Assembly: GCA_035292885.1 (NCBI GenBank)
Contig: DATDPG010000019.1
Coordinates: 59,570-123,569 of the forward strand
Direction: 5' to 3'
DNA length: 64,000 nucleotides
DNA from: Bdellovibrionota bacterium
Lineage (GTDB): Bacteria; Bdellovibrionota_G; JALEGL01; DATDPG01
Shown here piece after piece: positions 20,132-41,881 of this stretch; the first letter of the stretch is position 1, and each line of letters begins with the position of its first letter. The notes beneath the pieces are model-generated. The model ran no database searches. It was not told the origin of the DNA and worked only from the letters and a program-made list of their open reading frames with translations. A program made the translations under genes and the position numbers.

Positions 20132-20132
20132 C

Positions 20133-21715: not shown

Positions 21716-21719
21716 TGCG

Positions 21720-22945: not shown

Positions 22946-23512
22946 CTACCTTCGCAATTTAGACAGAAGGGAGGCCAGTGTTCGAGCTTCCCCGGCGCCA
23001 TACCGGCGGGTCAATTTCTTCAGGAGCGGGAGATCCAGCTTTTCACGCGAGACCTCCAATACCCCTCGCACGTCATCCATATCTTTAGGTCCCCCGGCGA
23101 AGATTTTCATCGCAATAAAATCCTCCGCCCCAATGATCCGTATGTGGCCTCCCATAAAGGCGGCCTCCAGAGCTCTGGACAGAGCTCCCGCTTCCATCCC
23201 TCGAATTCCCAACAACAAATCCACTCGGTTTTCGTAGGCATCCGCAAGCATGAGTACCGCCGTCACCGGGTCATCGACATCTCCTTTACTCAATTCCACA
23301 AGAAAACCCGCCCGATGCATCTCCTTTTCAAGTTCAGGCAAGTCGCCTGATGGCAGCGAAATGACTACATCCGCGTCTTGGCTGGCGCGAACCAGACCAT
23401 GGAAAGCGGCAGCAATCGCACCCACCACGGCATACGGAATCTTCAAATGATTCAAGATGTCGACCGCGTCCAAGAGGAGCAGCGTGGATTGTCCAGGTCC
23501 CGTTGTCTTCAT
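22946..23512 (-). CDS. pol-beta-superfamily nucleotidyltransferase-fold protein (uncharacterised)
   Basis: AVVGAIAAAFHGLVRASQDADVVI fits the G[SG]...DxD NTase motif. 188 aa. Confidence 0.4.
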   Translation of the reverse strand: MKTTGPGQSTLLLLDAVDILNHLKIPYAVVGAIAAAFHGLVRASQDADVVISLPSGDLPELEKEMHRAGFLVELSKGDVDDPVTAVLMLADAYENRVDLLLGIRGMEAGALSRALEAAFMGGHIRIIGAEDFIAMKIFAGGPKDMDDVRGVLEVSREKLDLPLLKKLTRRYGAGEARTLASLLSKLRR

Positions 23513-25497: not shown

Positions 25498-26397
25498 GTG
25501 TTGATCGTTTCGATACTGACTGGGGTAGCGATATCGGCTGCCGCCCCCGCTTCCACCAAGGTCGCGTTTTTGGCCGATCATGGGTACAGCGAAACAACCG
25601 ATGCCGTTTTCCGGATGGTTCGAAACGAAGGCGCTTCCCTGCTCGTGATTCAAGGCGATCTCGACTACAAGAGCGACGCCCAACAATGGGAGGAAATGAT
25701 CAACAGGACGTTGGGAGAGAATTTTCCGGTCCTCGTGGCTCCCGGCGACGAGGAATTTAAGCGCTGGAAAGACTACCAAACTGTCTTCCGCCGCCGCCTC
25801 GAACGAGCCAAAGAAGTTTCATGCGAGGGTGACCCTGGAATCCGTTCCACGTGCACGTTCCGCAATCTTCGGGTTCTGTTGCTCGGGGTGGGGTTGACCG
25901 GCGACGACTATTCTTCCTACATCCGCAATCCGGCTATCCATGGGAAGGAACCGTGGAAAATCTGCTCCTGGCATCTTAACCAGCGCCTCCTTCAGATCGA
26001 GAAGAAACCGGACGAAGCCGGATGGGACGCCTATGAAGCCTGCCGTGAGATCGGCGCGATCGTGGCAAACGGCCACGCGCACGTCTATGCCCGGACACAT
26101 CTATTGTCGAAAATGAATCCGCCGACCATCCTCTCGAAGGAACCGGTTCTTACGATCGCGCCCGGTCAGACGTTTCTCTTCATCAGCGGCATCGGCGGAA
26201 AATCAATCCGAAAGCAAAAGGACACCCTGGCCGCCAACCCCTGGTGGGCTACTGTTTATACCCGAAAACAACATGCCGATTTCGGTGCGCTCTTTTGTTC
26301 GTTCGGCGCCCAAGAGAAAAAGCCCAAAGGAGACTGCTACTTCAAAGACATTCAAGGCCGAGTCGTAGACCGTTTCGAGCTTCTCAGTCTTTTGTAG
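25498..26397 (+). CDS. calcineurin-like metallophosphoesterase
   Basis: GDLDY, GDEE and ANGHAHVY motifs. GTG start inferred. Confidence 0.5.
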   Translation: MLIVSILTGVAISAAAPASTKVAFLADHGYSETTDAVFRMVRNEGASLLVIQGDLDYKSDAQQWEEMINRTLGENFPVLVAPGDEEFKRWKDYQTVFRRRLERAKEVSCEGDPGIRSTCTFRNLRVLLLGVGLTGDDYSSYIRNPAIHGKEPWKICSWHLNQRLLQIEKKPDEAGWDAYEACREIGAIVANGHAHVYARTHLLSKMNPPTILSKEPVLTIAPGQTFLFISGIGGKSIRKQKDTLAANPWWATVYTRKQHADFGALFCSFGAQEKKPKGDCYFKDIQGRVVDRFELLSLL

Positions 26398-26427: not shown

Positions 26428-28017
26428 GTGAAGCGTTCGGCCCAGGTCGTTCAACCGGTACCGCCTTCTGGGGAGGTGGGGCGGGAGTATCCGGGCTTAT
26501 ACGAAGAACTCGACCAGCTGCGACGAAAGCGGTTGACGCTGGTGGCTACCGTCGGCGCGTTGATGTGCCTCACGATTCAAGTGATCAACTTCTGGACCCA
26601 AGCCGGCCCGCGGATCTATCCGCGGATGGAACCGGAGATCCTCGATCGGGCCACACTGCTCTTTCACGCCGCTTCGTTTCTTTCAGCCGCTTTCCTGTTT
26701 CGAATTCGTTCGCTTCAGACACAGACGGTTCTCGCTCTCGATCTCCTCTTGTTTGGGTTGAACATTCTCGCTCGATCCCTTGCGACGATCTGCATCGTTG
26801 AAACGGGCGATCATTTTCCGGGAATCGAGGGTATTTCCCTTGCGGTGATTTTGCATGGGGTATTCGTTCCGACCGGTATCACGATACCGATTGTGCTCGG
26901 CGCCTTGGCCACGATCTCCTTCCCGTTGGCCCAAATCGCGGGTTTACACTGGTTCGACTCGATCGCCGCACATTGGCAACAAGTAAGTGGGGCGGAGCCG
27001 TTTGCGTTCTTGCTTACTTTGAACACGCTTACGATCGCCTTTTTCGCCTTTCTCGGCGTTCTGGCCAACCGCGTTTTTTACGGCCTCGCCCGGGACGCCT
27101 ACCGCGCCAAACAGCTTGGGAATTATCTCATTGAAGGGGAACTCGGTTCGGGCGGGATGGGAAAAATTTTGATCGGACGGCATCGTCTGATGCGCCGGCC
27201 GACGGCGATCAAAGTTTTGCGGGCCGAGTTTTTGGGCGGGCCGGAAGCCTTGGCTCGTTTCGAGCGCGAAGTCGAACTGGCGTCAAAGCTTACGCATCCC
27301 AACACAATCGCCATATATGATTTCGGACGTTCGGCCGACGGAACCTTTTACTACGCCATGGAAATGCTCAAGGGGTTAAACCTCCAGGAACTCGTGGATC
27401 AATACGGTCCTCTTCCCTCGCCGCGGGCCGTGCATATCGTAAAGCAAATTTGCGGATCGCTGGCGGAAGCGCATTCGATGGGTGTCGTCCATCGCGACAT
27501 TAAACCGAGCAATATTTTTCTCACGCAGCGCGGAGGTCTGGACGACTTCGTCAAAGTCATCGATTTCGGTTTGGCCAAACAGGTCGCCACGCCCGACGTG
27601 CCGGGTGAGGGCCTTACGGAGGCCGGGCGTCTGTTCGGCACGCCGCATTTTATGGCGCCGGAGACGGCATACGGAGCCGATCGAGCGAGTCCTCAGTCCG
27701 ATATCTACAGCCTGGGCGCGGTCGCTTATTGGCTTGTAACCGGAAAGCGGCTCTTCGACGGCACTCCGGCGGAAATATTGGCCGCGCATGTGAAGACGGT
27801 ACCGAAGCCGCCTTCAAAAGTTTCAGAGGTTCAGATTCCGGCCTCACTCGAACAGACGATACTTACCTGCCTAAAGAAAAAACCGGAGGAGCGACACAAA
27901 TCGGCGATGGAAATCTTCACCGCGCTGGACGGCATCGAAGGGACATCACGTTGGTCAAACGCACAAGCGAGAGAGTGGTGGGAGATCCACCATCCGGGTC
28001 TGTTCACGCATCTTTGA
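26428..28017 (+). CDS. Ser/Thr protein kinase with N-terminal polytopic membrane domain
   Basis: About 230 aa of N-terminal TM helices, then a canonical Hanks kinase (GSGGMGKI, AIKVL, HRDIKPSN, DFGLAK, GTPHFMAPE). GTG start. Confidence 0.8.
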   Translation: MKRSAQVVQPVPPSGEVGREYPGLYEELDQLRRKRLTLVATVGALMCLTIQVINFWTQAGPRIYPRMEPEILDRATLLFHAASFLSAAFLFRIRSLQTQTVLALDLLLFGLNILARSLATICIVETGDHFPGIEGISLAVILHGVFVPTGITIPIVLGALATISFPLAQIAGLHWFDSIAAHWQQVSGAEPFAFLLTLNTLTIAFFAFLGVLANRVFYGLARDAYRAKQLGNYLIEGELGSGGMGKILIGRHRLMRRPTAIKVLRAEFLGGPEALARFEREVELASKLTHPNTIAIYDFGRSADGTFYYAMEMLKGLNLQELVDQYGPLPSPRAVHIVKQICGSLAEAHSMGVVHRDIKPSNIFLTQRGGLDDFVKVIDFGLAKQVATPDVPGEGLTEAGRLFGTPHFMAPETAYGADRASPQSDIYSLGAVAYWLVTGKRLFDGTPAEILAAHVKTVPKPPSKVSEVQIPASLEQTILTCLKKKPEERHKSAMEIFTALDGIEGTSRWSNAQAREWWEIHHPGLFTHL

Positions 28018-30256
28018 GTAATTCTTTGAGAGCAGATCGTTCTTCGTCCGAGGCAAAGAGCGTGGCTCCGGTCTTTAGAAGGTCGGAAACGACATGGTCG
28101 ATCGGTCGAACGGTTTTTCGCTTTTGTTCATCGCTCAGATCGCCGATAAACGGCCACAGTCCCTTTTTCAGATCGGCGGGAAGGACCTGCTCCAGATATT
28201 CGAGGGCGAAGCTCCTGAGCTTTTCGTTCTCGAGAAGAATTCCATAATAGGCCGCCCGAACCGCCTCGGGCTCCAGCACCAGCGCCAACATACGGAAGGT
28301 ATGCTCGATCCCGAGCTCCCCTCGGCGTCCCACCCGTTCGGACACGAGATCATCCTCTTCCGGCTCGGTTTCATCCAAAAGCCGGTGCAGTTCCCAGACC
28401 GGCTTTCCACGGCTGACTTCCCCTTTCAAGGCTTCCCACACACCCGTCTTCCAATTTGTCTCCGACACCGGAAGGCCATGCTTTCGGCGGTTGGCTAAAG
28501 CGATCGCCGAACGATATCGAACTTCGAACCGTGAGTCTCCCAGAGCCACGACAAGCGCCTCATCCGCTTTGGCGATCGGAACTTTCGCCAGGACACGGGG
28601 GATTCTCCTGCGGATGACGAAATCGTTGTTTTCGTCCCGGAGAATCCCCGCCAACACGTGGAATCCGCCAGCCCCGACTCGAACCAAAGCGTGCGTGACA
28701 AGATCCTGAAGATCTTTTTGTGCCAGGAGACGGACGAGAGTCTCCGCATGGCTTTCATTCCAGTCCGTTTTCTCCATCAGCGCTTTTCGAACCTCGGTGG
28801 GATTTTTGGATTGAATCCGTTCCAATGTCGTGCTCTTCGTTGGCGTGACCGGCGCTTGAGAGACTTTGGCTGCACCCGAGGGTGGAAGGAGACCTCGGGC
28901 CTCCAAGTCGGCGGCTATACCCAGCCGGCTGAAGGTCGCCGTCAAAAGCCCTCTCCCCTCAAATCGGGCATCCGCCAGCATTCGTTCCGGTTCCGCCTTA
29001 TCCCGCAGCTGTTGAACGAGCGTCTCAAAATACTTCCTTCCGATTTGCCGGCTCAGCCCCAAGAAACCGAGGGCTGAGACTCCCACAAGAATCGAAAGGT
29101 ATTTGGAGGGAAGGCCTCCCAAGGTGATGCATAGAAAAATGAGTCCCGATCCGGCCCCTTCGGCAGCCGCGTCGACCAAAGAATCAATGAAGGTCTTCGT
29201 TTTTCGCCGGACCTGCGTGGGAAGAGGGATGTACACAACTTCGACGGCCGACCGAAAAATGGATTTCCGGATCGAATTGTCCGCGCCGCGCGCCAACGTG
29301 GCCGCTATTAATCCGGGCAAGAGAAAAAGCCCGGTGGAGCCGGCCAGCAAAACCATCGGCAGAACTGCGAACGTGGTCCCGACACCCGTCCTCGCCAAAA
29401 GCGGCGCTGTAACAACGACCTGAAGAAGAAGAGAAATAAGGCCGGTCCAACCGTAGAAGCTCCCGAAAAACCCGGCCAGCTGTTCCCTCGACTGCAAGGA
29501 AGCTCGAACTTGTTCCTTGAATTGATAGTCGAGGAGCGTGCTCGCTAACGTTGCCGCGAAAACGATTGAAGCCAACGTCCGCAGATGCTCGTTCCGCCAT
29601 ACGAGATGCAAGCTCTCACGCGTACTGGTCCGTTCGCCCTCCTTTTCCTTAGGGTCCATGTCCTTTCGCGCCGGAAGCAGGACTTGCAGAAGCAAAAAGA
29701 GGCCGACAAGCCCAATTAACGCCGGGATCATTTGAACGAGGCCGATCTGTTTGATCAGCGGCTTGATGGACGTACCCAGAGTGAGGGCGCCGATGGTCCC
29801 TCCGGCGCTGATTAACGCAAACAAACGCTTGGCGCGGCGAATCGGAAAAAATTCCGCCGTGACCACCCAGAAGCCGGAGGTCAAGACGAATGCGCCCAGC
29901 GCCGTCCAGAGGTAAAAGACAACCACGGCGGAAGCATTTTGCGTCGCAACCGGCCAAAGTGCGAGAAGGCCCATCGCGAATAGAAACACCGCGTAACGAA
30001 GGACACGTTGAGCTCCGTACCGGGCCATAAGTTTGGAAAACGTCCCAATCGTTGGCAACGCCAGAACCACGACGGCGGTCGTGATATACGGGAGCGTCTT
30101 GACGTCGAATGTGCCAAGGTAGAGGGCCTCACGAAGGGAGCGCCCGAGAATCATCATTCCGACGACGAAAAACGCGCCGAGAAAACAGAGAGCAACCGTA
30201 GGGAACTCGCCCGGCCTTATGTCAAGCCAACTTGTGAGCCGCTGGGCGGGTTTCAT
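28004..30256 (-). CDS. TLC/MFS-like 12-TM transporter fused to C-terminal HEAT-repeat domain
   Basis: N-terminal 430 aa polytopic domain (GRSLREALYLGTFDVKTLPYITTAVVV resembles ATP:ADP antiporter-family openings). C-terminal 300 aa of repeated alpha-helical HEAT-like units (ALVRVGAGG...LAKVP...ALVVALGDSRFEVRYRSAIALAN). Confidence 0.55.
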   Translation of the reverse strand: MKPAQRLTSWLDIRPGEFPTVALCFLGAFFVVGMMILGRSLREALYLGTFDVKTLPYITTAVVVLALPTIGTFSKLMARYGAQRVLRYAVFLFAMGLLALWPVATQNASAVVVFYLWTALGAFVLTSGFWVVTAEFFPIRRAKRLFALISAGGTIGALTLGTSIKPLIKQIGLVQMIPALIGLVGLFLLLQVLLPARKDMDPKEKEGERTSTRESLHLVWRNEHLRTLASIVFAATLASTLLDYQFKEQVRASLQSREQLAGFFGSFYGWTGLISLLLQVVVTAPLLARTGVGTTFAVLPMVLLAGSTGLFLLPGLIAATLARGADNSIRKSIFRSAVEVVYIPLPTQVRRKTKTFIDSLVDAAAEGAGSGLIFLCITLGGLPSKYLSILVGVSALGFLGLSRQIGRKYFETLVQQLRDKAEPERMLADARFEGRGLLTATFSRLGIAADLEARGLLPPSGAAKVSQAPVTPTKSTTLERIQSKNPTEVRKALMEKTDWNESHAETLVRLLAQKDLQDLVTHALVRVGAGGFHVLAGILRDENNDFVIRRRIPRVLAKVPIAKADEALVVALGDSRFEVRYRSAIALANRRKHGLPVSETNWKTGVWEALKGEVSRGKPVWELHRLLDETEPEEDDLVSERVGRRGELGIEHTFRMLALVLEPEAVRAAYYGILLENEKLRSFALEYLEQVLPADLKKGLWPFIGDLSDEQKRKTVRPIDHVVSDLLKTGATLFASDEERSALKELLKDA

Positions 30257-30269
30257 TCAGAGGTGTTTA

Positions 30270-31850
30270 CTACGCCGCCTCGGCGAAGTCGACCGGCTGG
30301 CGATGAAGCGACCACCACTCCCTCGCCTGATTCTGCGTCCAGAGTCTGTTGGGTTCACAGGTTTCAAGCGCACCGAGGAACTCGTCCATATTTTGAAAGC
30401 GATCTTCGGGCTTCTTGGCCAGACACCGAAGAACGAACCGGTCCAACGCTTCGGGAATGGCGATCTCGGAGAGTTCGGAAGGTGGTTTAGGGTCGGTCTT
30501 GGCGTGATCGACGAGAAGCTCGACGTTGGACGACGCGGCAAAAAGCGGCTGTCCCGTGAGCAACCAGAAGGTCACCGCTCCCAGATTATAGATATCGGCA
30601 CGATGATCCACTTTCGATGAGCCGTACACCATCTCCGGCGCGATGTACCGAGGGGTCCCGAAAATCACTCCGGTCTTCGTCAAGTGGGAGGCTCCGTCAA
30701 TTTTCATCTCTTTGGCCAGACCGAAATCCAGAACCTTTACGAAATCGTAAATGCCACCCCGTTCCGTCAGAAAAATATTCGCCGGCTTGATATCGCGGTG
30801 AATGATGTCCTTGTTGTGAGCTTCACCGAGCGAGCCGGCGACCTGACGGAGAATATGAATGGTACGAGCGGCCGGCAGGGGACCGTATTTCTCGACGATC
30901 TCCTGAAGGTTTAGGCCGTCCAGGAACTCCATCACGTAAAAAAATTTGTTGTCGTCCGTCCGTCCGAAATCATAAATTGAAATCGTATTGGGATGACTGA
31001 GTGTCGAGGCCAGTTGAACCTCCCGTTCGAAACGTTGGATCGCCGCTCCGGAATCGTCGTCGCCCGGCACAAGCATCTTTAATGCGGTCGGCCGGTGCAT
31101 CATGGCGTGATGGGCGATATAGACCTTTCCCATGCCGCCGCTCCCGATCTCTTTTTCCAGGATGTAATTGCCGACTTGCTTCGCTTGATGGAGGTCCTTT
31201 CGCATGTTGTAAAGCGTCTTTGTGACCAGAGCCGAGACAAGACCATATATCGCGATTTGAATCGCTTGCGCCGGTGTGGCTCCGACCATCGCGTCGTATC
31301 CTCCACGCGTCTCCCAAAAGGTTTGGACGGAAGGGAACCAGAGATAGGACAAGAATCGCATGACGACGAAACCGAGTGTTGCCCAAACGCCCATGCTGAT
31401 CTGGCAACTCAAGAGACAGGGAACAAATGCCGCGTGTACGAAAAGTATCAATGAAATCGGAAAAAGTGGAGCCTCGGCCGGAAATGCGATGGCCCCAACC
31501 CACGTAGCCAGCAAAAGGTTGAAATGGAATACAACGTTATCGATCGTGCGGAGGGTCCCCGCTCGCCAATCCTTCAAGGAACGTAGAAAAAGCAGTGCTC
31601 CGGCAAAAGAAGCGGCATGAATCCATTTGGAAATCAGAACCCAATTCGGCGCGATCACACTTTCCCATTGAACCGGGCCCCACAAGTATTTTGTAATAAC
31701 CCAGCCGATCACACTGAGCGTCAGGCCCAAATAGGAGACGAGAATCAGGCGCTGATGAAGAAGCCCGCACCTCTCCTTCTGAAACGAGTCGCTCGTCTGG
31801 GCGGGCGACGGTTCCTTTTTCTTACAGCAAAGGGGCATCGTGATCGGCAT
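30270..31850 (-). CDS. Ser/Thr protein kinase with N-terminal polytopic membrane domain (paralog of 26428..28017)
   Basis: Same architecture and extensive identity with the other kinase (GSGGMGKVY, HRDIKPANIFL, DFGLAKE, GTPRYIAPE, and an AQAREWW C-terminus shared by both). Confidence 0.8.
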   Translation of the reverse strand: MPITMPLCCKKKEPSPAQTSDSFQKERCGLLHQRLILVSYLGLTLSVIGWVITKYLWGPVQWESVIAPNWVLISKWIHAASFAGALLFLRSLKDWRAGTLRTIDNVVFHFNLLLATWVGAIAFPAEAPLFPISLILFVHAAFVPCLLSCQISMGVWATLGFVVMRFLSYLWFPSVQTFWETRGGYDAMVGATPAQAIQIAIYGLVSALVTKTLYNMRKDLHQAKQVGNYILEKEIGSGGMGKVYIAHHAMMHRPTALKMLVPGDDDSGAAIQRFEREVQLASTLSHPNTISIYDFGRTDDNKFFYVMEFLDGLNLQEIVEKYGPLPAARTIHILRQVAGSLGEAHNKDIIHRDIKPANIFLTERGGIYDFVKVLDFGLAKEMKIDGASHLTKTGVIFGTPRYIAPEMVYGSSKVDHRADIYNLGAVTFWLLTGQPLFAASSNVELLVDHAKTDPKPPSELSEIAIPEALDRFVLRCLAKKPEDRFQNMDEFLGALETCEPNRLWTQNQAREWWSLHRQPVDFAEAA

Positions 31851-31927
31851 ACGCTCGCATCTCCCGGTGGGGCCTATCTAGCGATGATAATGATCATTGT
31901 CCAGGAGGTCCCCGTATCTCCTTTATA

Positions 31928-33238
31928 TTGATTCAGTCCGGAGGAAGGTCTAAAAATTACAAATTGATTCCAAGGGCTTACACGGTTCTTTTGGGGATCC
32001 TCTGCACGATGACGCCTGCGGTCGCGGAAACCGTACCCGCGCCGATCTCCGGAACAGAACCGGAAACCCCGGTCGTCATCCAGGAAAAGGAACCTCGCTG
32101 GCCCAAAATCCTCGCTTTTCCCTTGGATCTTCCACCGACGGTTGTTCGCGGCGTCGGTCTCCCTTTCTCCATGTTCGCGAATTGGGCCGAGGAGACGAAC
32201 CTGCCCCTTCGGGCGCTGGAGTTTTTTTCCAACGATGACCGAACGGCGTATTGGTACCCGACCTTTCGAATCGGCGGTAAGGGAGGCGCATTTTTCGGCG
32301 CCGGAGGAAAGCACCGAGACCTTTTCGGGAGGGGATACAGCGGTTCGGCGCTCGCGAATGTTTCGTTAGGCCTCGATCTCGATGCCAAACTTTCCTTCAC
32401 GCATCCTCATCTCGGAAACAGCGATGTCGCCGGAGGTTTGGCCGCAACGTATTACCGGCGGCAACTGGAGGAATACTACGGCATCGGCAACGATTCCCGG
32501 GCGGAAGATTCCCGGAAATTCGAAGGGCGTCTTTTATATTTGTCCGCGCCGCTTGGCGGACAATGGGGTCGTCATTTCAATTGGGACGCGGCGGCGAAGT
32601 ACGCGGTTCTTGAGCAAGATGAGGCTTTCCCTGGAGATTTAAGCGGCAATTTTCCGTCCAACGAACTCTTCGGATTGGGCGAGTCGATCTCGGGGGGAGA
32701 CTTCGGCTTTGGTCTTCGTTGGGACGACCGGGATTTTAAAGGAGCGCCCGGGAAAGGGACGGTGATCAAGGGTTCGTTCAACGGCTTTGTTGGAGAGAAC
32801 GATTTTCGTTTTATTCGGACCAAAGCGGCGTTCAGCCGTTTTCTGACGCTCCGAAAACGAGGGCGAACGCTCGGTTTCGGCGGACGGTTTGAGTGGGCGG
32901 CTACGCCCGGGGGCGGCGAAATTCCGTTCACTTTCGTTCCATACTTGGGCGGAAGCGGAAATTTTCGCGCCTACGACGATTTTCGGTTCCGAGACAACGC
33001 GCTGTTTATGCTGATTAGCGAGTACCGTTATCCGCTCTGGCGGTACGCCGACATGGCGCTCTTTTTTGAAAGCGGCCGTGTCGCGGGCAGCCCGAGAGAT
33101 CTAAGTTTCCACGATCTGCACTACTCGTACGGCGCTGAAATTCGTTTTCGGACGCTCGACATCGCCTTTTTTCAAATTCTCATCGCTCACGGGGAGGACG
33201 GGTTCCGCGCGACGATGTCTCTGAACCAAAGTCTATGA
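31928..33238 (+). CDS. Omp85/BamA-superfamily-like outer-membrane beta-barrel protein
   Basis: Signal peptide. C-terminal LGGSGNFRAYDDFRFRDNALFMLISEYRYPL...GAEIRFRT resembles Bac_surface_Ag barrel strands. Confidence 0.45.
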   Translation: MIQSGGRSKNYKLIPRAYTVLLGILCTMTPAVAETVPAPISGTEPETPVVIQEKEPRWPKILAFPLDLPPTVVRGVGLPFSMFANWAEETNLPLRALEFFSNDDRTAYWYPTFRIGGKGGAFFGAGGKHRDLFGRGYSGSALANVSLGLDLDAKLSFTHPHLGNSDVAGGLAATYYRRQLEEYYGIGNDSRAEDSRKFEGRLLYLSAPLGGQWGRHFNWDAAAKYAVLEQDEAFPGDLSGNFPSNELFGLGESISGGDFGFGLRWDDRDFKGAPGKGTVIKGSFNGFVGENDFRFIRTKAAFSRFLTLRKRGRTLGFGGRFEWAATPGGGEIPFTFVPYLGGSGNFRAYDDFRFRDNALFMLISEYRYPLWRYADMALFFESGRVAGSPRDLSFHDLHYSYGAEIRFRTLDIAFFQILIAHGEDGFRATMSLNQSL

Positions 33239-34989
33239 ACGCACCCTTTTTTCGCACGGTCCTGATCGTTTTATCCGTCACGGGTTGCACGCATCATTCG
33301 CCTGCGCCGATTCTCACGCAGCACCAAATCGCCGACGATCGGAAGCCGATCGCCCCGGTCAAGGAGCGAACCGACTTGAAATATGGCGAAGTCGCCGATC
33401 GAAACACGTTCGAGCGACTTGCACGGGTCGCGGACGTTCGAACCTACCTAACGGGCGTAGGAAATAGCCTGGGCGGTGACTGGGGCCCCGAAGCCCTCAA
33501 CGCGAACTCGTTCGACGAAGTCGCCGACTCCAGCTGGTTTACGAATCGGAATGCACGCCAGGAGGTCGCTCTCGATATTCTTCGAGACGGCCCGCCGCCG
33601 GCGATTCACCTGTCGACCGTAGGGCCACTCGCCATTATCAGCGGCAAGGGATCGGGGGATATTCCGGGATTCATCGTGGCGGACCCAAACAACCAGCGGT
33701 TCCTTCTGAAGTTCGATTCGAGCGAATATTGCGGCCTATCGACGTCGACCGACGTCATCTCCAGCCGTTTCTTGTATGCCGCCGGTTACAATACTCGGGA
33801 AACACGGATCGAGCATATCGATCCGGCTCGATTCGTTCTCGATCCGAAAGCAAAAACCAAAGACCGCTTCGGGAAGAAGGTTCCGATGGATCAGGAGGCG
33901 TTTGCTCGCCTGATCGCCCGGCTTCCCGGCTGCCGGAAAGACGGAAAAGTTCGAACGATGGCCAGTCGCTTTTTGGAAGGGAAACCTGCCGGCCCGTTCT
34001 CCTATCAGGGTCGACGCGCCGACGACCCCAATGACAGGCTTCCCCATCAACACCGGCGGGAGTTGCGCGGTCTCGTGGTTCTGGCGTCATGGATCAACAA
34101 CACCGACTTTCAGGATTACAACACGCTCGACATGTTCAAGGAGGCGGGCGATGGGAATGGGCATCTCGTCCATTACTTGCTCGACTTCGGCGGATCCTTC
34201 GGCCACGGGACGCTCCACCCGAAACAAAATTACCAGGGCCATATTCATTTTATTGATTTCGAGGAAGCAGGATTAAATCTTCTGACGTTCGGACTTCGCG
34301 ATCCCGTCTGGGCGCAAGATTTCCCAATTCGGTATCGGTCGATCGGAAACTTTCGGGCCGACAACTTCGACCCATCGGAGTGGCGGCCGAGCAATCCCCA
34401 TCCGGCCCAGCAACAAATGACCGAACGAGACGGATTCTGGGGGGCGAAGCTGGTGGCCTCTTTTTCCGATGAACAGATCCGCACCGCCGTCCGGGCCGCC
34501 GAGCTTCCCGAAGATGGGGCCGAAGAGGAGATGGTTCGAATTCTAAAAAGTCGGAGGGACACGATCGCGAAGTACTGGTTTTCAAAGGTCGGAGCTCTCG
34601 ATCGTTTTGTCATCGAAGGGGACGTCCCCACCGTCCGATTTGTAGACTGGAACCAGGCGGGGCTCTGGCGGCCGACGCAGGCTGTGTCGTATCGCTGGCA
34701 TCTTCGAGGGAGGAAAATCTATCGTAGCGGTACGACACTCAAACCTCGGATCGAATTATTCGCAACGAAGGAGGCATTCGAAACTTGGCAGAAACAGATC
34801 CGTAAGAGCGCCGATCGTTACCTGCGACTGAACATCACGCCGATGATCGAAGATCCCGTCAGCCTGCCGTACGAGAAAGTTGCAACAACCGCTCGCGCGG
34901 CGGGCCACTCGACCGAGGCGAGCATTTTCCTCCATGATGACGGTCGATTCTATTGGGTTGGAACCGATCGAAAGCGATCGTCGAACTAA
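33235..34989 (+). CDS. large lipoprotein of unknown function, translationally coupled to the Omp85-like gene
   Basis: ATGA overlap. Signal ending VTGC. 584 aa. Contains WINNTDFQDYN and LLDFGGSFG segments. Confidence 0.45.
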   Translation: MNAPFFRTVLIVLSVTGCTHHSPAPILTQHQIADDRKPIAPVKERTDLKYGEVADRNTFERLARVADVRTYLTGVGNSLGGDWGPEALNANSFDEVADSSWFTNRNARQEVALDILRDGPPPAIHLSTVGPLAIISGKGSGDIPGFIVADPNNQRFLLKFDSSEYCGLSTSTDVISSRFLYAAGYNTRETRIEHIDPARFVLDPKAKTKDRFGKKVPMDQEAFARLIARLPGCRKDGKVRTMASRFLEGKPAGPFSYQGRRADDPNDRLPHQHRRELRGLVVLASWINNTDFQDYNTLDMFKEAGDGNGHLVHYLLDFGGSFGHGTLHPKQNYQGHIHFIDFEEAGLNLLTFGLRDPVWAQDFPIRYRSIGNFRADNFDPSEWRPSNPHPAQQQMTERDGFWGAKLVASFSDEQIRTAVRAAELPEDGAEEEMVRILKSRRDTIAKYWFSKVGALDRFVIEGDVPTVRFVDWNQAGLWRPTQAVSYRWHLRGRKIYRSGTTLKPRIELFATKEAFETWQKQIRKSADRYLRLNITPMIEDPVSLPYEKVATTARAAGHSTEASIFLHDDGRFYWVGTDRKRSSN

Positions 34990-35075
34990 GTCAGGCGCCA
35001 CGTAAGCTGCTGGAATTACTTACGATTTAAATACCTTAAAAGTCAGCCGCATAAATCGTAAAATAGAAATACTCC

Positions 35076-35861
35076 TTGTTCCGCCATTCCAATACGGGTC
35101 GTATTCTGCTGTTTTTGACAGTCCTGATCTCCATCACTTCGGCGCAGGCGGCGGAAGATTTTTCACCGGGATCCTTTGAACTGCCGCCCCATCCTCGTTT
35201 TACGGCATTCAGACAGAGCCTATTGGCCGAACAAGCAGCCCTCATCGCCGGAACAACCTTCGCCGCATCGTTTCTGGCGTATCGCCTGGTGGATACACCG
35301 CTCGGGGTCGACGGAAGCGCCGGCGCTTTAGGACCCGCCAGTCAATGGATCTCGGATATCGGCAACTATCTTCCGTTTGCGCTGCCGGTCGGGTTTTTTG
35401 CCGCGGGCCAGTTTTTCGAAAAGGGAAGTCTGGAGAGGTCCGAGGCATTTAAGACGGCCCAGGAGTTGGCCGAAGCGATCGCCCTAACCTACGGAACGAC
35501 GATAGGACTCAAGTACGCCGTGGGCCGAACGAGACCGAACGGTCAGGATGATGCATCGTTCCCCTCCGGTCACGCGTCGATGGCCTTTGCTGCGGCCGGC
35601 GTCCTCGCGCAACGATTTCCTTGGTACGTTGGCGTCCCCTCCGTGGCGTTCGCCAGCGCAGTTGGGTTCACCCGGTTGGACCTGGGCAAACACTACCTCT
35701 CCGATGTCGCTGTCGGAGCAGGATTGGGTCTCTTCTTCGCCACCACGGTTCACCTCTACCATTCCAATTTGTCTTTTATGGCCCATAAGCCATCGCAGCA
35801 GACGGTTGTCCCGATGGTGGCAAAAAACATTTTAGGTCTCAGCTTCACGGGGACCTTTTAG
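35076..35861 (+). CDS. PAP2-superfamily phosphatase, secreted/membrane
   Basis: KYAVGRTRP, PSGH and HYLSDV motifs (the KxxxxxxRP / PSGH / SRxxxxxHxxxD tripartite PAP2 signature). Confidence 0.75.
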   Translation: MFRHSNTGRILLFLTVLISITSAQAAEDFSPGSFELPPHPRFTAFRQSLLAEQAALIAGTTFAASFLAYRLVDTPLGVDGSAGALGPASQWISDIGNYLPFALPVGFFAAGQFFEKGSLERSEAFKTAQELAEAIALTYGTTIGLKYAVGRTRPNGQDDASFPSGHASMAFAAAGVLAQRFPWYVGVPSVAFASAVGFTRLDLGKHYLSDVAVGAGLGLFFATTVHLYHSNLSFMAHKPSQQTVVPMVAKNILGLSFTGTF

Positions 35862-35955
35862 TCTTCGATTTGGAAATCGGCCGACGTCGCTGCTGACTCA
35901 GGTGATCAAGTAAACCCGCTTGATTTTAGCGGTTTATGTGGTATAACGCCTTGCG

Positions 35956-37113
35956 TTGGTATCCACAAAAAAAATCATCTTTTTCTTATTCGCTTTGATA
36001 ACCTTTGCACCCCCCTCCCAGGCGGAGGGGCCGGTCCTGGGTATCGGCGATGTCTTAAATCTTCTTACCGAGCTGCGTAGGTTCCATCAGAATTGCATTC
36101 CGGACGATGGCAGAGAGGTTTCCGAGGATACCCACGCGTTTTTAAATGAATGGAACAACCTCTCCACTCTGCCGTTCAACGCAATCGACTACCCGGCTCT
36201 GGCCGCAAAGATGGGGCCGAGTCTCTTACGAATGGGGAAGCTTCTCCACAGATACACCTATGGCGGGTCCTATGACGAACTGAATCCCGGTCATTCACGG
36301 GAGTTCGGCAACGGTACAAGGAGTCGCAATTTCAGGGGACGCCGCAATCATGAACTCAGAGATCCGGAGAATTGCGGCCCGCCGGTCGTCGACAGAATTC
36401 TCGCTGAGAAACAATGGGACAGAGTCCCCGGTTTCGACCCCAGCGTTTGGCGGCAACGTAATTCATTGGTAACGCAAGCCAGATCGCTCCTTCAACCGAG
36501 TCTAATCGTAACGGCGACGACAGCAGCGGCTGTCGCTGCGCTCTCTAGTCTCGCTTTACGTCAACCATCCGCTCTCCTCTCTCAAGCGAGTTCACCAATA
36601 ATTATGCCCAGGCTAACGGACCAGATCGTTCCAGACGCCGAGATACGACGTGACCCACCAGAAGTGTTCCTCGCTCTTTGCAGCGCTATCACATCGAATG
36701 GCCGGTGCGAACCGGAGCTCGATATAAACTGGCAAAAGCTTTACGTGTTGTATGCCTCGCGGGCGATCAACGACTTTTCCGAAGTGGTGACGAAGGAAAT
36801 CGAATTCCGGGAGAAAATCCTACAAGGTTACCGACCGACTCTCGCCCAACTGCTGGAGATGTACGCGCGCCGAGATGTTCTGGGTCAGATCAAGATCTGC
36901 GACGGAAACATCGAGAGCTGTTTGCCTCCTGAAAAGGGTTTTCATTATCAAAAGGCCGCACAGATTCTTCAATGTCTTGATAACGATGCGGAAGGCTGTC
37001 GTGAACTTCCGGAAGGCTTCGGGAAGCTCAGCCGGGGCTACGTTGATAAAGCGATCAAACGACAGTTCGGAATAAGACCTTTTCCATCTCGCCTTCCTCC
37101 GAAGTGGAGCTAA
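35956..37113 (+). CDS. hypothetical secreted protein
   Basis: TTG start in an AT-rich patch. Signal peptide. No recognisable domain. Confidence 0.4.
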   Translation: MVSTKKIIFFLFALITFAPPSQAEGPVLGIGDVLNLLTELRRFHQNCIPDDGREVSEDTHAFLNEWNNLSTLPFNAIDYPALAAKMGPSLLRMGKLLHRYTYGGSYDELNPGHSREFGNGTRSRNFRGRRNHELRDPENCGPPVVDRILAEKQWDRVPGFDPSVWRQRNSLVTQARSLLQPSLIVTATTAAAVAALSSLALRQPSALLSQASSPIIMPRLTDQIVPDAEIRRDPPEVFLALCSAITSNGRCEPELDINWQKLYVLYASRAINDFSEVVTKEIEFREKILQGYRPTLAQLLEMYARRDVLGQIKICDGNIESCLPPEKGFHYQKAAQILQCLDNDAEGCRELPEGFGKLSRGYVDKAIKRQFGIRPFPSRLPPKWS

Positions 37114-37129
37114 ACAACAGAATATGCGT

Positions 37130-38365
37130 CTACGGTAAGTGCTTCGCATTCGGACTCGCCGGAGCCAGGCTCGTCAGAAACGCATAGAGATCCGCCATCT
37201 CCCGGCCCGTCAGTTTGGGCCACTTCAAGTGTTGCTCGGTATGCTTCTCTTGCATCTCGGTGGAGTGGTTCCACATCGCCGCGACCATGCCCATGGGGGA
37301 GTTCAATTTGCTGATGGCGGCGAAATCTTTCGCCGCGTTTCGTCCCTTGCCGTTTAAGGAGTGGCACGTCAGGCATTCTCGGTCCCTAACGAGATTCTCC
37401 CCTGTGGCGGGGCTCCCCGGTGCGTCCTCCAGTTTCATGCTGTAGAGATACGCGATGACGTGCGCCATCTCCCCCTCCTTGAAATCCGGGAACGTGAGTT
37501 TCTTTTCTTTCATCATCTCCCACATGGCGGGGCCGTGATTCCACATCTTGGCCGCGATCTCGGTCACGGGATAGTTGAAATCGACCTCAGCGAAATCGGG
37601 CGCCGTGGTTGGTGGTTTGGCACGGAACGAATGGCAATGCATGCACCCTTTTTCGGTCAAGAGTTCCTTCCCCTTTGAGGGATCGCCGAGGTCATAGTCG
37701 CTGGCCGGGAAGACGGTCGGGGCCATATACGAACGGATTCCGGCGGCCAGGGCGTCCATCTCGTCCTCTTCGATGACGGGCCGATCGATCTTGTACTTCT
37801 CAAAAAGCGCCAGCATTTTCGGGCCATGGTTCCACATCGCTTCCGCCAGTCGGATGGGGGAGATGTATTCCTTTTTCGCGCTGATGTCGGGAGCGATTCG
37901 GGCGCCTTCCCCTCCAAATTGATGACAAGAGAAGCATCCCTTTTCCTTCAGCACCTTTCTTCCCATCGATTCCCTCACCGGTTCCGCCATGTACCGGATG
38001 AAAGAGAGATAGCGAACCAGCTCGGACATCTCCTTCGGCGTGAACTTCGGAAAGGCATACCCTTTGGTCTCGATCTTCTTCGCCATTCTCGGAAGGTGAT
38101 TCCACATGACGGAAGAAAGCTCGAGGTATGTACCGTAAAACTTGCGGTTGCCCAGGTCGGGACCGCCGCGGCCCCCCCTCCCGTACACGGAATGGCACTG
38201 CGCGCATCCCTTCTGATGGAAGACTTCCCGACCCGGCCACGGTGAGGCCGAAGTGGCTGCTTCCTGCGCCCGAAGGGCGAAAATGGAGCCGGATGACATC
38301 AGGAGATACGCGAGAATGAATTGCAGGAGGCGGATGCAGTTTCTCCGGGTAGTGGACATAGTCAC
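37130..38365 (-). CDS. tetraheme cytochrome c of four class-I domains (paralog of 21720..22931)
   Basis: Signal peptide. Four CxxCH motifs, each with a GPD and a downstream MWNH motif. Confidence 0.75.
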   Translation of the reverse strand: MTMSTTRRNCIRLLQFILAYLLMSSGSIFALRAQEAATSASPWPGREVFHQKGCAQCHSVYGRGGRGGPDLGNRKFYGTYLELSSVMWNHLPRMAKKIETKGYAFPKFTPKEMSELVRYLSFIRYMAEPVRESMGRKVLKEKGCFSCHQFGGEGARIAPDISAKKEYISPIRLAEAMWNHGPKMLALFEKYKIDRPVIEEDEMDALAAGIRSYMAPTVFPASDYDLGDPSKGKELLTEKGCMHCHSFRAKPPTTAPDFAEVDFNYPVTEIAAKMWNHGPAMWEMMKEKKLTFPDFKEGEMAHVIAYLYSMKLEDAPGSPATGENLVRDRECLTCHSLNGKGRNAAKDFAAISKLNSPMGMVAAMWNHSTEMQEKHTEQHLKWPKLTGREMADLYAFLTSLAPASPNAKHLP

Positions 38366-38828: not shown

Positions 38829-39257
38829 TCATTCTTTGAAGGGATTGAGGATTCGCAAGTCCTCTACGTGAAAACCATGCTGCAGGTCTTCGGTATAGAG
38901 CGCGTCACAATTCGAGGCCAGTGCCTGAGCCACAATGGCCGCATCCCAGAAAGACCAGCGATAACGATGCCGAAGGCGACACGCGTGGACGAAGATTTCC
39001 TGAGTTGTCACGACCGGGTCCCATGAAAAGTAACTACGACAGACATCGACGGCATCCTCGAAGGAAAGAGGTTTCGGGATCTTGGTCGCGACCGTGACGA
39101 GAAATTCCTGCAACACCTGCAGGCTCGTCGCAGCCGATTGGTTTTCCCAATGGGCCTTTACGAGATCCGAAGATCGATTTGATTTACCGGAATCACTTCG
39201 ATCATACGCATAGACGAGAATATTCGTGTCAAAGAAAGCGCGCCTATTTTCGGACAT
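38829..39257 (-). CDS. vapC: PIN-domain toxin (VapC)
   Basis: FFDTNILVY N-terminus and conserved acidic residues of the PIN fold. 142 aa. Confidence 0.7.
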   Translation of the reverse strand: MSENRRAFFDTNILVYAYDRSDSGKSNRSSDLVKAHWENQSAATSLQVLQEFLVTVATKIPKPLSFEDAVDVCRSYFSWDPVVTTQEIFVHACRLRHRYRWSFWDAAIVAQALASNCDALYTEDLQHGFHVEDLRILNPFKE

Positions 39258-39489
39258 GCAGGGCGTCCCTCGACCAGGTCACCTTTCCCACTTCATACAG
39301 GCCCTTCGCCATTCTTCGCATTTCCTTGCGAAACGCACGTTGATGAAGCGATTTCCGCGAAATGAGTTCGTGGGCGTATTTGGCAAGAAGCCTGGAGACA
39401 GACTGGTTGGCTTCGGCCGCGGCGATTCGGAGCTTTCGCAACAACGGGCGGGGGAGGGTCAACGTGATGTTTTCGAGATCTCTCTTCAT
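39244..39489 (-). CDS. vapB: ribbon-helix-helix antitoxin (VapB/CopG-like)
   Basis: MKRDLENITLTLPRPLLRKLRIAAAEANQSVSRLL RHH pattern. Overlaps the vapC start. Confidence 0.55.
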   Translation of the reverse strand: MKRDLENITLTLPRPLLRKLRIAAAEANQSVSRLLAKYAHELISRKSLHQRAFRKEMRRMAKGLYEVGKVTWSRDALHVRK

Positions 39490-39551
39490 TACACTATTAT
39501 CGTGTAACACGATTATCGTGTCAATGCCTCGACCGGGTGGTGCCAAGACAG

Positions 39552-40793
39552 TTACTTGCGCGGCGGAGGAAGCGAACGGATTTTGAGAGCCAGAGCGATG
39601 ACCAACAACGTGAGGAATATTGTGCTGATTCCGAGGCCGACTCGGCGGGTTTTGTTTTCGCGGAGAGCGGCTTTCCCCAAAGCGATGGCTTGATCCACAG
39701 CTTTTCGTCCCTCCGTGATCTTCGCCTCCACCCCCGGCATGGAAAAGGAGTGAATCTCGGTTCGTGCCTGAATCAACGCCTGCCGGGCATTTTGCATGCT
39801 GTCCTCGGCTTCGGTGACGTCCATTCCCTTGTCCCTCGCTTCTTCGATAATCTTCGAAGCTTCGGCCGAATAATTCTTCAAAGAGCCGATCATCTTGGAG
39901 AACGCCATGGCCACGGCGGCGCCTTTATCCCCCTCTTTGTGGCACTTGGCGCAGATCGCGCCTTGCTGCGTCCCGATCCGGTCATCTGAGATGTGAACGA
40001 TCAGATGATTGCCGTGGCAGGAAATGCATTCGCCGTAGGGATCCTTCTGCAGGGCTTTCGCCATGGGACTCTTGAGAAACAGCTCGGCGTTGTGGACGTG
40101 GCAGGAGCCGCAAATATGGGCGATGGATTTCAGTCCCGGCGGTGTGGCGCCGTGGTTGCCGTGACAATCGTTGCAGGCGGGAGCGCCCCGGACATCTCCT
40201 TTTTCAAGCAGAGCTTTCCCATGCACACTTTTCGCGTACTCGGCATAGACGGTCGTCGAGATCTTGTACGGCTTCATATATTCGGGGTCGGCGTGGCAAT
40301 GGGCGCACATCGTCGGCAGGTTCACCGCGTAAACCGGAGACTTCGCGTCGTTGACTTTCCGGATGTTGTGCACGCTGTGGCAGCTGACGCATTCGGCGAC
40401 TTTGGTGTCCCCCTGTTTCAGTTTCTTGCCGTGCTGGCTGGTCAGGTAGAGCTCATACTGATCGACCCGAAGCATCGGGTTGTATTTCTTCATGAAGACC
40501 GGGTTGCTGTGGCATTTCGCGCAAAGTTTCGGAATGTCCGCCCTCTTCGGCGCCCCTTTGAAGCCTTTCTTCGGGTCCATTGAGATATCTTGGTCGTCCG
40601 AGGTCGGATCTCCGCCGTGGCATTCGTTGCACCCGATTCCCGCCGTGGCGTGCACGTCATCCTTCCAGCGGGTGGAGGGCTCATCTTCCATCGACTGATG
40701 GCAGATAAGGCATTGGCCGCCGGGCAGCGCAGCAGCTTCTTCGGCGTATGCCGACGAAAGTACGTTCAGCAGAATGAATAAAATCCAACTCAT
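39552..40793 (-). CDS. membrane-anchored nonaheme c-type cytochrome (cytochrome c subunit of bc-type complex)
   Basis: Signal MSWILFILLNVLSSAYA. Nine CxxCH motifs. C-terminal TM helix (GLGISTIFLTLLVIALAL). The start overlaps the cytochrome b stop. Confidence 0.75.
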   Translation of the reverse strand: MSWILFILLNVLSSAYAEEAAALPGGQCLICHQSMEDEPSTRWKDDVHATAGIGCNECHGGDPTSDDQDISMDPKKGFKGAPKRADIPKLCAKCHSNPVFMKKYNPMLRVDQYELYLTSQHGKKLKQGDTKVAECVSCHSVHNIRKVNDAKSPVYAVNLPTMCAHCHADPEYMKPYKISTTVYAEYAKSVHGKALLEKGDVRGAPACNDCHGNHGATPPGLKSIAHICGSCHVHNAELFLKSPMAKALQKDPYGECISCHGNHLIVHISDDRIGTQQGAICAKCHKEGDKGAAVAMAFSKMIGSLKNYSAEASKIIEEARDKGMDVTEAEDSMQNARQALIQARTEIHSFSMPGVEAKITEGRKAVDQAIALGKAALRENKTRRVGLGISTIFLTLLVIALALKIRSLPPPRK

Positions 40794-41881
40794 GCGAGTA
40801 CGTGTCCGGCGATGGTCATTCCTATAAAAAAAAGCAATAGCGCCATCCCGATGCCGCGGAGAATCTTTGTGGTCGATTTCTTTTTTCCGCAGTCGATCCA
40901 TGGAATAAGCAGCCAAAACACGCCGATCCCGCCGAAGATCATGTGTCCGACCAGCTCCCCGTCAATCGGCCCCACCTTGGCGGGCAAGAACTTGAGCGTC
41001 TGGAACATGAAAAGGAAATACCACTCCGGTTTGATTCCGGCCGGGGCGGAGGCGAAAGGATCGGCTTTCCTTCCCAGTTCCCAGGGGAAGAAGACCGCCA
41101 GGATCGCCAAAATATCGAGAATGATAAACCAAAGTAAAACGTCCCGGAGAAAGAAGTGCGGGAAAAACGGGATACTCTTCCGGTTTTCCGGGTGGCGTTT
41201 CCAATCTTCGGGCTCGTGCATTCCCTGGATCTGCACGAACAGCAAATGAATACCCAGAACGGAAGTGAAGATCGCCGGGAGGAGGGCGACATGCAAAGCG
41301 AAGAAGCGGGTCAGCGTAGAGCCGGTGACTTCTTCTCCGCCGCGGAGAACATGCATGAGGGTTTTCCCGATGTACGGCACGACGCCGATCATGTCGGTGC
41401 CGACCTTGGTGGCGAAGAAGGAAAGTTCGTTCCACGGCAGCAGGTAACCCGAAAACCCGAACGTCATGACGATTCCCAGAAGGGCGAGCCCCGTGACCCA
41501 GCTGAGTTCGCGGGGTTTCCTGTAAGCTCCCATGAAAAAGACGCTGAACATGTGGATGATGACGGCCAGGACCATCAAATTGGCCGACCAGCTGTGGATC
41601 GACCGGATCAGCCAGCCGAAAGGCACTTTCGATGTGATAAATTGAACGCTCTCGAAGGCCGCGTCGGCGCTCGCCTTGTAATAGAACATCAGGAGAATGC
41701 CGGTGGAGAGTTGGACGATGAAGAGAAAGAGGGAAACTCCGCCGAAGTAATACCAGATCGCGGTCTTTCCCATCGGCACTTCTTTGTGCCGCCCCCACTC
41801 AATCAGCTGTGCGATGGGATATCGGTCGGACAGCCATTCGATCGCGAGAGCGGCCCTACGCTTTAAGTGAGATGTAAACAT
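40790..41881 (-). CDS. cytochrome b (fused b6/subunit IV type)
   Basis: Conserved His-containing helices (WSANLMVLAVIIHMF, FFALHVALLPA). PEWYFL motif. Confidence 0.8.
   Translation of the reverse strand: MFTSHLKRRAALAIEWLSDRYPIAQLIEWGRHKEVPMGKTAIWYYFGGVSLFLFIVQLSTGILLMFYYKASADAAFESVQFITSKVPFGWLIRSIHSWSANLMVLAVIIHMFSVFFMGAYRKPRELSWVTGLALLGIVMTFGFSGYLLPWNELSFFATKVGTDMIGVVPYIGKTLMHVLRGGEEVTGSTLTRFFALHVALLPAIFTSVLGIHLLFVQIQGMHEPEDWKRHPENRKSIPFFPHFFLRDVLLWFIILDILAILAVFFPWELGRKADPFASAPAGIKPEWYFLFMFQTLKFLPAKVGPIDGELVGHMIFGGIGVFWLLIPWIDCGKKKSTTKILRGIGMALLLFFIGMTIAGHVLA

Follow-up and report, generated by a model that had tools for sequence, protein, structure and literature searches.

A predicted secreted kinase encoded with a POTRA-less Omp85 barrel: a conserved gene pair linked to nucleotide-carrier and phosphatase genes in diderm bacteria

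Omp85 proteins without POTRA domains form a known class, termed noNterm, to which no function has been assigned (PMC4104836; PMC11358297). Transporters of the NTT type fused to HEAT repeats are a second such family, and Major, Embley & Williams 2017 (PMC5381601) describe these NTT-HEAT fusions as widespread, monophyletic and uncharacterised, and as sometimes followed by a gene for a cNMP-binding protein. The subject here is a pair of overlapping genes within a 64,000-nucleotide stretch of a Bdellovibrionota genome (assembly GCA_035292885.1, contig DATDPG010000019.1, positions 59,570 to 123,569; below, the window), which encode a predicted noNterm Omp85 barrel and a secreted protein of predicted kinase fold, with an NTT-HEAT gene nearby. 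NTT-HEAT fusions occur also in cyanobacteria, chlamydiae and oomycetes. According to the general view, the periplasm contains no ATP, with envelope processes powered indirectly via TonB, Lpt bridges or the proton-motive force, and the eukaryotic kinases of the secretory pathway, such as Fam20C, depend on the import of ATP into the lumen.

The central result is an ancient and tightly coupled gene pair, which encodes the barrel together with a secreted atypical kinase whose catalytic residues are intact. The descriptive part of the analysis, which covers folds, targeting, catalytic residues, the pairing itself and the genetic linkages, can be stated with high confidence. The two genes are as follows (aa, amino acids).

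31928..33238, + strand: barrel gene, POTRA-less (noNterm) Omp85 family, 436 aa, TTG start in the open reading frame (ORF) listing
33235..34989, + strand: kinase-fold gene, encoding a secreted lipoprotein with a C-terminal FN3-like β-sandwich, 584 aa, ATG start

The start and stop codons overlap by 4 nt at 33235-33238, so that the ATG of the second gene lies on the TGA of the first (ctATGAac, 33233-33240). A first-pass annotation of this DNA had given these coordinates and had proposed translational coupling through the overlap, and both the ORF listing and the sequence agree with it.

The pairing was followed by running iterated hidden Markov models built from the window proteins over every ORF of 82 loci. 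By a strict rule, a barrel gene lies directly upstream of the kinase gene on the same strand in 72 of the 82. Of the ten exceptions, over-long ORF starts account for three (L035, L053, L068), a single inserted gene for three more (a metallophosphoesterase in L003, and one gene each in L036 and L038), and two lack upstream flank (L054, L071), leaving only L009 and L014 as loci truly without a barrel. The corrected count is therefore 78 of 80 evaluable loci, spread over more than 12 diderm phyla, and the joint conservation that the first-pass annotation had named as a test of the pair is what was found. Blind clustering of all ORFs likewise detected an Omp85 protein in 80 of 83 loci. The 4-nt gene overlap recurs in many loci, and in L132 and L146 the pair has been duplicated as a pair. 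Independent gene calls show the same two genes in the contig of a homologue with 51% identity (P0002) and in a Nitrospira chromosome (34% identity).

The 584-aa protein, whose N-terminus reads MNAPFFRTVLIVLSVTGC, is identical to a database entry, a hypothetical protein from a Bdellovibrionota metagenome-assembled genome. Searches against Pfam, NCBIfam and PDB sequences gave nothing usable for either query, the single sequence or a profile of 56 sequences. Matches to the HipA family (PF07804 / PF20613) stayed below threshold, with HipA_C appearing in 7 of the 56 sequences (best E 0.026) and HipA_2 in 6 of the 56 (best 0.0046). Only by structure comparison was the kinase fold recognised. The AlphaFold2 (AF2) model built on the 56-sequence alignment (pLDDT 90.8, pTM 0.91) has a bilobal kinase fold followed by an FN3-like domain, and in the PDB Foldseek matches it best to Fam20C (the Golgi casein kinase, E 4e-5), CtkA and Rio2; HipA, PI4K-IIα and CotH are also among its structural neighbours. 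On this model the protein is an atypical protein kinase of the HipA/CtkA/PI4K-II/Fam20 structural clade. The earlier statement that it has no recognisable domain thus holds for sequence searches but not for the predicted structure. The elements to be discussed are listed here.

33709..33711, + strand: β3 lysine K159 (RFLLKFD), predicted ligand of the ATP α/β-phosphates; 202/202 sequences, in strand E155-160 of the model
34096..34122, + strand: catalytic loop NNTDFQDYN, with catalytic Asp D291 and metal-binding Asn N296; both 202/202
34183..34191, + strand: DFG motif with metal-binding Asp D317; D317 202/202, F318 143/202, G319 170/202
34597..34986, + strand: C-terminal FN3-like β-sandwich, residues ~455-584
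33277..33288, + strand: lipobox V-T-G-C (residues 15-18, Cys18), with Thr rather than Asp at +2; from the sequence

The first-pass annotation had noticed DFG-like and D..N-like segments and had taken them as a hint of a kinase-like fold. These are not chance matches, because D291, N296 and D317 are invariant in all 202 aligned sequences. The DFG motif stands in the context HYLLDFGGSF (34171-34200). H313 is also invariant in the 202-sequence alignment, K138 and G141 of the Gly-rich loop are each present in 199 of 202, and the αC acidic residue in 186 of 202. K159, D291, N296 and D317 all sit in the expected secondary-structure elements of the model. Such a set of invariant residues is, to judge from sequence, the signature of an active phosphotransferase. 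A pseudokinase was considered and rejected, because the catalytic residues are invariant.

Beyond the core residues, the segment R261-x-D-D-x-N-D-xxx-H271-xx-R-R-xx-R278 (34015-34068) is essentially invariant and specific to the family, and W101, R105, D399, W402 and R440 are conserved to the same degree. The 261-278 segment is likely to be a substrate- or metal-binding element. The motif was not recognised in the structurally similar kinases, with which no residue-level comparison was made.

Export of the kinase is a family trait, since a hydrophobic N-terminal segment is present in 101 of 104 full-length homologues. The lipobox is not. The first-pass annotation had called the 584-aa protein a lipoprotein, and the VTGC lipobox of the window protein bears this out, but only 49 of the 104 homologues have one. 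Because it is found in about half, the family is better described as secreted than as lipoprotein, and the barrel does not recognise a lipid anchor. The suggestion of a surface-lipoprotein translocation pair fits poorly for the same reason, namely that the anchor is not conserved. Where a lipobox is present, Asp never occupies the +2 position. According to the +2 rule of E. coli, a non-Asp residue predicts sorting to the outer membrane, and on this basis the lipoprotein members are predicted to be outer-membrane proteins.

The family is large and widely distributed. A search of 1.84 billion representative sequences with hmmsearch found 4,323 clusters (50% identity) at E<=1e-3 and 1,606 at 1e-30, and a scan in which each GTDB species was represented by one genome yielded 561 confirmed kinase relatives. 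Among the best 80 loci of these 561 relatives are Latescibacterota, Nitrospirota, Zixibacteria, Calditrichota, KSB1, Gemmatimonadota, Acidobacteriota, Bacteroidota, Rhodothermales, Balneolaceae, Myxococcota, Marinimicrobia, Krumholzibacteriota, Ignavibacteria and others. Every lineage listed for these 80 is diderm, with more than 12 phyla represented, and the hosts come from phyla that live free in soil, sediment and the sea, not from groups of pathogens or predators.

The 436-aa protein starts with a signal peptide (…LLGILCTMTPAVA, followed by E), continues with a helical, low-confidence segment at about residues 45-110, and forms its barrel from residues 112-432. It has no Pfam match, and its NCBIfam matches fall below the curated cut-offs: 4e-11 for Omp85_fam (43 bits, cut-off 200) and 6e-9 for the BamA barrel model (BamA positions 407-708). 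The picture is clearer for a set of 40 aligned orthologues, mostly encoded upstream of kinase homologues, in which PF01103 (Omp85) matches 35 and NF047779 (NCBIfam Omp85_fam) matches 39 at E<=1e-3, with a best value of 4.3e-28. The AF2 model has 16 strands within residues 112-432 (pLDDT 70 overall and 70-93 in the barrel); residues 326-357, where loop 6 is expected, form a long loop that includes a short helix. Compared with the PDB by Foldseek, the model matches BamA (6qgx, E 6e-12, TMt 0.66) and TamA (4n74, TMt 0.73), and structures of the BAM complex are also among the top matches (BamA-RcsF 6t1w, BamABCDE). The Omp85-like barrel of the first-pass annotation therefore stood: the window protein by itself resembles Omp85 weakly, the resemblance is firm for the family (PF01103 in 35/40, Foldseek to BamA), and structure prediction gives a β-barrel. 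The confidence of the model is moderate because only an 11-sequence alignment underlies it; a word-indexed homologue search returned 9-11 relatives, even with the 40-sequence alignment as query.

POTRA domains, which the first-pass annotation had proposed to look for, are absent in that none of the 40 family members matches PF07244. In the AF2 model the N-terminal 110 residues contain two low-confidence helices and no β-α-α-β-β POTRA unit. Because no POTRA domain was found, the protein is placed in the noNterm class, and its predicted structure is closest to the BamA and TamA barrels. The family consensus keeps both Omp85 signatures, LRGY in loop 6 and LFxDxG in β13. The window barrel has FRAY in loop 6 and FFESG in β13, so that position and context are kept and one key residue is changed in each motif. 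Its nearest homologue, P0122, shares the change, the two together reading (F/L)RAY and F(F/L)E(S/G)G (32960-33100, residues ~345-385), and the substitution may represent a lineage-specific change in barrel mechanics.

The start of the barrel gene deserves comment. The public gene call (P0121) begins at an ATG at 32009 and gives a 409-aa protein in which the signal peptide is missing. In-frame TTG codons at 31928 or 31964 restore a plausible Sec signal, so that the true start probably lies upstream of the deposited one. A well-spaced Shine-Dalgarno sequence is missing in front of both TTG codons.

Genes for nucleotide carriers and for extracytoplasmic phosphatases show genetic linkage to the pair. 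In the window, the genes concerned are the following.

28004..30256, - strand: NTT-HEAT, a TLC/NTT ATP/ADP-translocase-like transporter with HEAT repeats, 750 aa; Pfam TLC 7.6e-17, MFS_1
35076..35861, + strand: PAP2-family membrane phosphatase with a signal peptide, 86 bp downstream of the kinase gene; Pfam PAP2 8.4e-14
26428..28017, + strand: polytopic-membrane Hanks-type Ser/Thr kinase, 529 aa, a paralogue of the gene at 30270-31850; Pfam Pkinase 7e-43
30270..31850, - strand: polytopic-membrane Hanks-type Ser/Thr kinase, 526 aa, divergent from the barrel gene and upstream of NTT-HEAT; Pfam Pkinase 3e-46
25498..26397, + strand: candidate secreted calcineurin-like phosphoesterase, 299 aa, with a hydrophobic N-terminus; Pfam Metallophos 7.9e-4, just under the cut-off

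The window transporter scores 61.7 bits against PF03219 (TLC), for which the cut-off is 21. When NTT genes were counted within 8 kb of the kinase, TLC/NTT genes were found in 42 of the 82 loci, and in 26 of the 44 (59%) that had at least 7 kb of flank on both sides of the kinase gene (full-flank loci). HEAT-repeat fusions make up 29 of the NTT matches, and 14 of the matches come immediately downstream on the same strand. The extended order seen most often is barrel, kinase, NTT (~450 aa) and NTT-HEAT (~930 aa), with the tandem of the two transporters downstream of the kinase in L003, L006, L029, L069, L088, L129, L142, L146 and L149; in L001 a gene for a cNMP-binding protein follows NTT-HEAT. 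The linkage is also visible from the other side. A reverse scan of metagenomes with an NTT-HEAT alignment gave 80 loci, of which 25 contain the kinase gene (16 of them among the 27 loci that span 15 kb or more), and the barrel gene stands beside the kinase gene wherever the flank allows.

Phosphatase genes recur as well. Metallophosphoesterases are encoded in 17 loci, mostly with a lipobox or signal peptide, and include lipoproteins resembling PhoD and purple acid phosphatases; their subfamily, made up mostly of lipoproteins, differs from that of the window gene at 25498-26397. A phmmer search of the latter against all fetched loci found no relatives, and its membership in the module is uncertain, the basis for it being synteny with the P0002 contig, where a 299-aa gene with a weak Metallophos match occupies the same position upstream of a Ser/Thr kinase gene. 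PAP2 genes immediately flank the pair in 10-13 other loci. The window PAP2 gene may or may not be co-transcribed with the pair; a promoter and terminator scan of 31500-37400 gave counts no higher than in shuffled sequence.

Further recurrent neighbours are histidine kinases (19 loci) and polytopic Hanks Ser/Thr kinases (11 loci). The layout in which a Ser/Thr kinase gene and NTT-HEAT on one strand are followed by barrel, kinase and PAP2 genes on the other ("stk< NTT-HEAT< omp> KIN pap2>") is common to the window and to the Acidobacteriota loci L072 and L078. The two Hanks kinases that flank NTT-HEAT in the window have long polytopic N-terminal membrane domains without a Pfam match, and similar Ser/Thr kinases adjoin NTT-HEAT in L004, L061, L072 and L078. 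These Hanks-type kinases may regulate the cytoplasmic HEAT domain of the transporter.

A model that brings these observations together is as follows. The kinase would be exported by Sec, becoming lipidated in the window bacterium and merely cleaved of its signal peptide in about half of the relatives. It would then act extracytoplasmically, bound one-to-one to the barrel on the periplasmic side of the outer membrane, and the barrel would serve as a tether where the kinase has no lipid anchor. In the members that do have a lipid anchor, its non-Asp +2 residue agrees with this location. The linked NTT(-HEAT) antiporter would carry ATP out to the periplasm and ADP back in, feeding the kinase, and the linked secreted or membrane phosphatases (PAP2 proteins and metallophosphoesterases) would reverse or turn over the phosphorylation. 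As a whole, this mechanism, in which an NTT antiporter supplies ATP to an envelope kinase docked to an Omp85 barrel of its own, is offered tentatively, its chances being put at somewhat under even. We infer both the direction of nucleotide transport and the location in the periplasm, as opposed to the surface.

The strongly basic invariant residues suggest that the acceptor of the kinase is acidic or already phosphorylated. Candidate substrates are an envelope protein (possibly clients of the barrel or the barrel itself) and a lipid or glycolipid head-group. By analogy, a lipid is slightly favoured by the PAP2 linkage and the similarity to PI4K-II and MavQ, and a protein is favoured by the similarity to CtkA, HipA and Fam20C. 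We know of no phosphoinositide metabolism in the phyla that carry the kinase family.

Several points weigh against the docked-kinase model. The evidence for contact between barrel and kinase is genetic only. The window barrel departs from both Omp85 signature motifs (RAY, FFESG), and its model is moderately confident (pLDDT 70) and leaves the N-terminal 110 residues unresolved. An NTT gene is missing from the surrounding 8 kb in about 40% of the full-flank loci, and 33 of the 117 kinase genes are accompanied by the barrel alone. The test from the NTT side is partly circular, because the seeds were NTT-HEATs from kinase loci. The NTTs characterised so far all bring nucleotides into parasites or plastids (PMC5381601), and because the NTT-HEAT clade is uncharacterised, its substrate and direction of transport are assumptions. 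Periplasmic ATP could be lost through porins or hydrolysed by the very phosphatases encoded nearby. Finally, proteins with a kinase fold and intact residues are capable of other reactions too, for example AMPylation or glutamylation.

The alternative that survives best is a dedicated export pair, in which the Omp85 barrel moves the kinase to the surface or into the medium, where it phosphorylates extracellular, prey or neighbour-cell targets. In essence this takes up the export idea of the first-pass annotation and extends it past lipoproteins. The order of barrel then cargo, together with translational coupling, matches the logic of TpsB and TpsA, and duplication as pairs suggests one barrel per cargo. 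In addition, CtkA of Helicobacter, one of the top structural matches of the kinase model, is a secreted kinase, and noNterm Omp85 genes of Leptospira are followed by lipoprotein genes and have been proposed as export pairs (PMC11358297). The cargo in the present case would be a globular two-domain enzyme of 60 kDa, however, and it would have to pass a barrel without POTRA domains (0/40) while itself lacking a TPS domain (no Pfam match). An extracellular enzyme would be without a source of nucleotides, the recurrent NTT genes would go unexplained, and the family resides in free-living soil, sediment and marine phyla, not in pathogens or predators. Export of this kind is unlikely on balance.

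Nucleotide or phosphate scavenging is less probable again. Here the barrel would be a conduit, the kinase-fold protein would bind or process nucleotides, the NTTs would import them and the phosphatases would trim phosphate esters. The characterised NTTs are all importers (PMC5381601), the linked PhoD-like and purple-acid-phosphatase-like lipoproteins are typical of phosphate scavenging, and PAP2 enzymes include periplasmic acid phosphatases. Omp85 barrels are generally known as insertases and translocases (BamA, TamA, FhaC), not as solute porins, and the invariant catalytic D291 and metal ligands point to catalysis rather than mere binding. A kinase would still require a phosphoryl donor in the periplasm, and membrane-anchored lipoproteins, which make up half of the members, would be odd as shuttle binding proteins.

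A similarly low probability is given to the idea that the kinase-fold protein is an accessory subunit of a specialised Omp85 insertase, comparable to BamB-E for BamA or TamB for TamA, with marginal or regulatory nucleotide chemistry. Omp85 proteins commonly have dedicated lipoprotein partners, BAM structures are among the top Foldseek matches, and noNterm Omp85s may still serve membrane-protein biogenesis (Heinz and Lithgow, PMC4104836). Full conservation of the catalytic residues in 202 sequences from more than 12 phyla would nevertheless be unexpected for a purely structural role, and the linkage to NTT and phosphatase genes would be left unexplained. Incidental adjacency of genes with unrelated functions is effectively refuted by the comparative data, as order and strand are kept in 78 of 80 loci across more than 12 phyla, with 4-nt overlaps and joint duplication.

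The remaining genes of the window belong to other subjects. Downstream of the PAP2 gene, 35956-37113 (+) encodes a 385-aa protein with a signal peptide that has no Pfam or NCBIfam match and no homologue in the fetched loci. On the other side, 23836-25218 (-) encodes an IPT/TIG protein with bacterial TSP3 calcium-binding repeats, and 22946-23512 (-) a DUF6036 nucleotidyltransferase-like protein. Respiratory genes surround the module (16940-22931, 37130-38365 and 39552-40916), comprising a molybdopterin oxidoreductase, an NrfD-type membrane subunit and several multihaem or c-type cytochromes, one of them with a match to an MtrC/MtrF-like domain. A PIN-domain toxin gene at 38829-39257 (-) (Pfam PIN 4.7e-9) is overlapped upstream by a small gene at 39244-39546 (-) with a weak ribbon-helix-helix match, and from sequence the two (38829-39546) look like a VapBC-type toxin-antitoxin pair.

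Each part of the docked-kinase model comes from a known superfamily (Omp85, protein-kinase-like and NTT), and the kinase family itself has no Pfam or NCBIfam model and no sequence relative in the PDB. No account of a kinase that is periplasmic or linked to Omp85, nor of any function for NTT-HEAT, turned up in a literature search. It is possible, if rather doubtful, that many diderms run an ATP-dependent phosphorylation of the envelope, with a barrel-docked HipA/Fam20-like kinase, ATP exported by NTT and opposing PAP2 and metallophosphatases, which would be a new type of system. If true, this would contradict the textbook view of a periplasm without ATP-driven chemistry, and would provide the orphan NTT-HEAT and noNterm-Omp85 families with a function. 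The question of whether ATP drives chemistry outside the bacterial cytoplasm becomes directly testable in this way, and POTRA-less Omp85s, NTT-HEAT transporters and the kinase-like family would all receive their first functional hypotheses. For NTT-HEAT, the linkage suggests a testable role in supplying nucleotides to an envelope kinase.

Comparison with described systems shows where the pair stands. The genes of TpsB/TpsA and Slam systems share the arrangement seen here, with the barrel gene directly before that of its exported partner in a one-to-one relation, and to this extent the first-pass comparison with two-partner and surface-lipoprotein-export pairs was apt. It did not extend to the proteins themselves, because the defining domains of both systems were looked for and are absent. 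TpsB has two POTRA domains and TpsA a β-helical TPS domain; membership in two-partner secretion was rejected, as the window barrel lacks POTRA domains and its partner is predicted to be a bilobal kinase with an FN3-like domain and has no Pfam match. Slam is a 14-stranded DUF560 barrel with TPR repeats, and membership was likewise rejected for the 16-stranded, Omp85-type window barrel, which has no DUF560 or TPR match.

BamK of Klebsiella and the noNterm paralogues of Leptospira (Heinz & Lithgow 2014, PMC4104836; PMC11358297) have the same POTRA-less, 16-stranded barrel of BamA/TamA type that is predicted here. A lipoprotein gene comes next in Leptospira, as in the window, but its product is adhesin-like there and a kinase-fold enzyme here. 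Moreover, the window barrel has RAY and FFESG instead of RGY and FxDxG, and belongs to a pair linked to NTT and phosphatase genes. The 750-aa window transporter shares the NTT-HEAT architecture of PMC5381601, a likeness of architecture and not a clade placement by phylogeny, and the available text of that paper reports no genomic link of NTT-HEAT to an Omp85/kinase pair.

On the kinase side, PI4K type IIα and MavQ of Legionella (PDB 4pla, 7m7a) have no sequence homology to the window kinase, and a lipid substrate by analogy with them is conjectural. HipA, in the HipA/CtkA group (PDB 3akj, 4pu3, 7wcf), is a cytoplasmic toxin of toxin-antitoxin modules. Relative to these proteins, the window kinase adds a signal peptide or lipobox, an extra N-terminal region, the R261-R278 segment and the FN3-like domain, and none of its family members attains the Pfam threshold. 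Fam20C, Fam20B and CotH (PDB 4kqa, 5yh0, 5xom, 5jda) show no detectable sequence relationship to it, yet the model would make the window protein a bacterial parallel to secretory-pathway kinases such as Fam20C. In contrast to the Fam20 kinases, it is bacterial, predicted to be associated with the outer membrane and paired with an Omp85 barrel, and its proposed ATP carrier is of the NTT/TLC rather than the SLC35 type.

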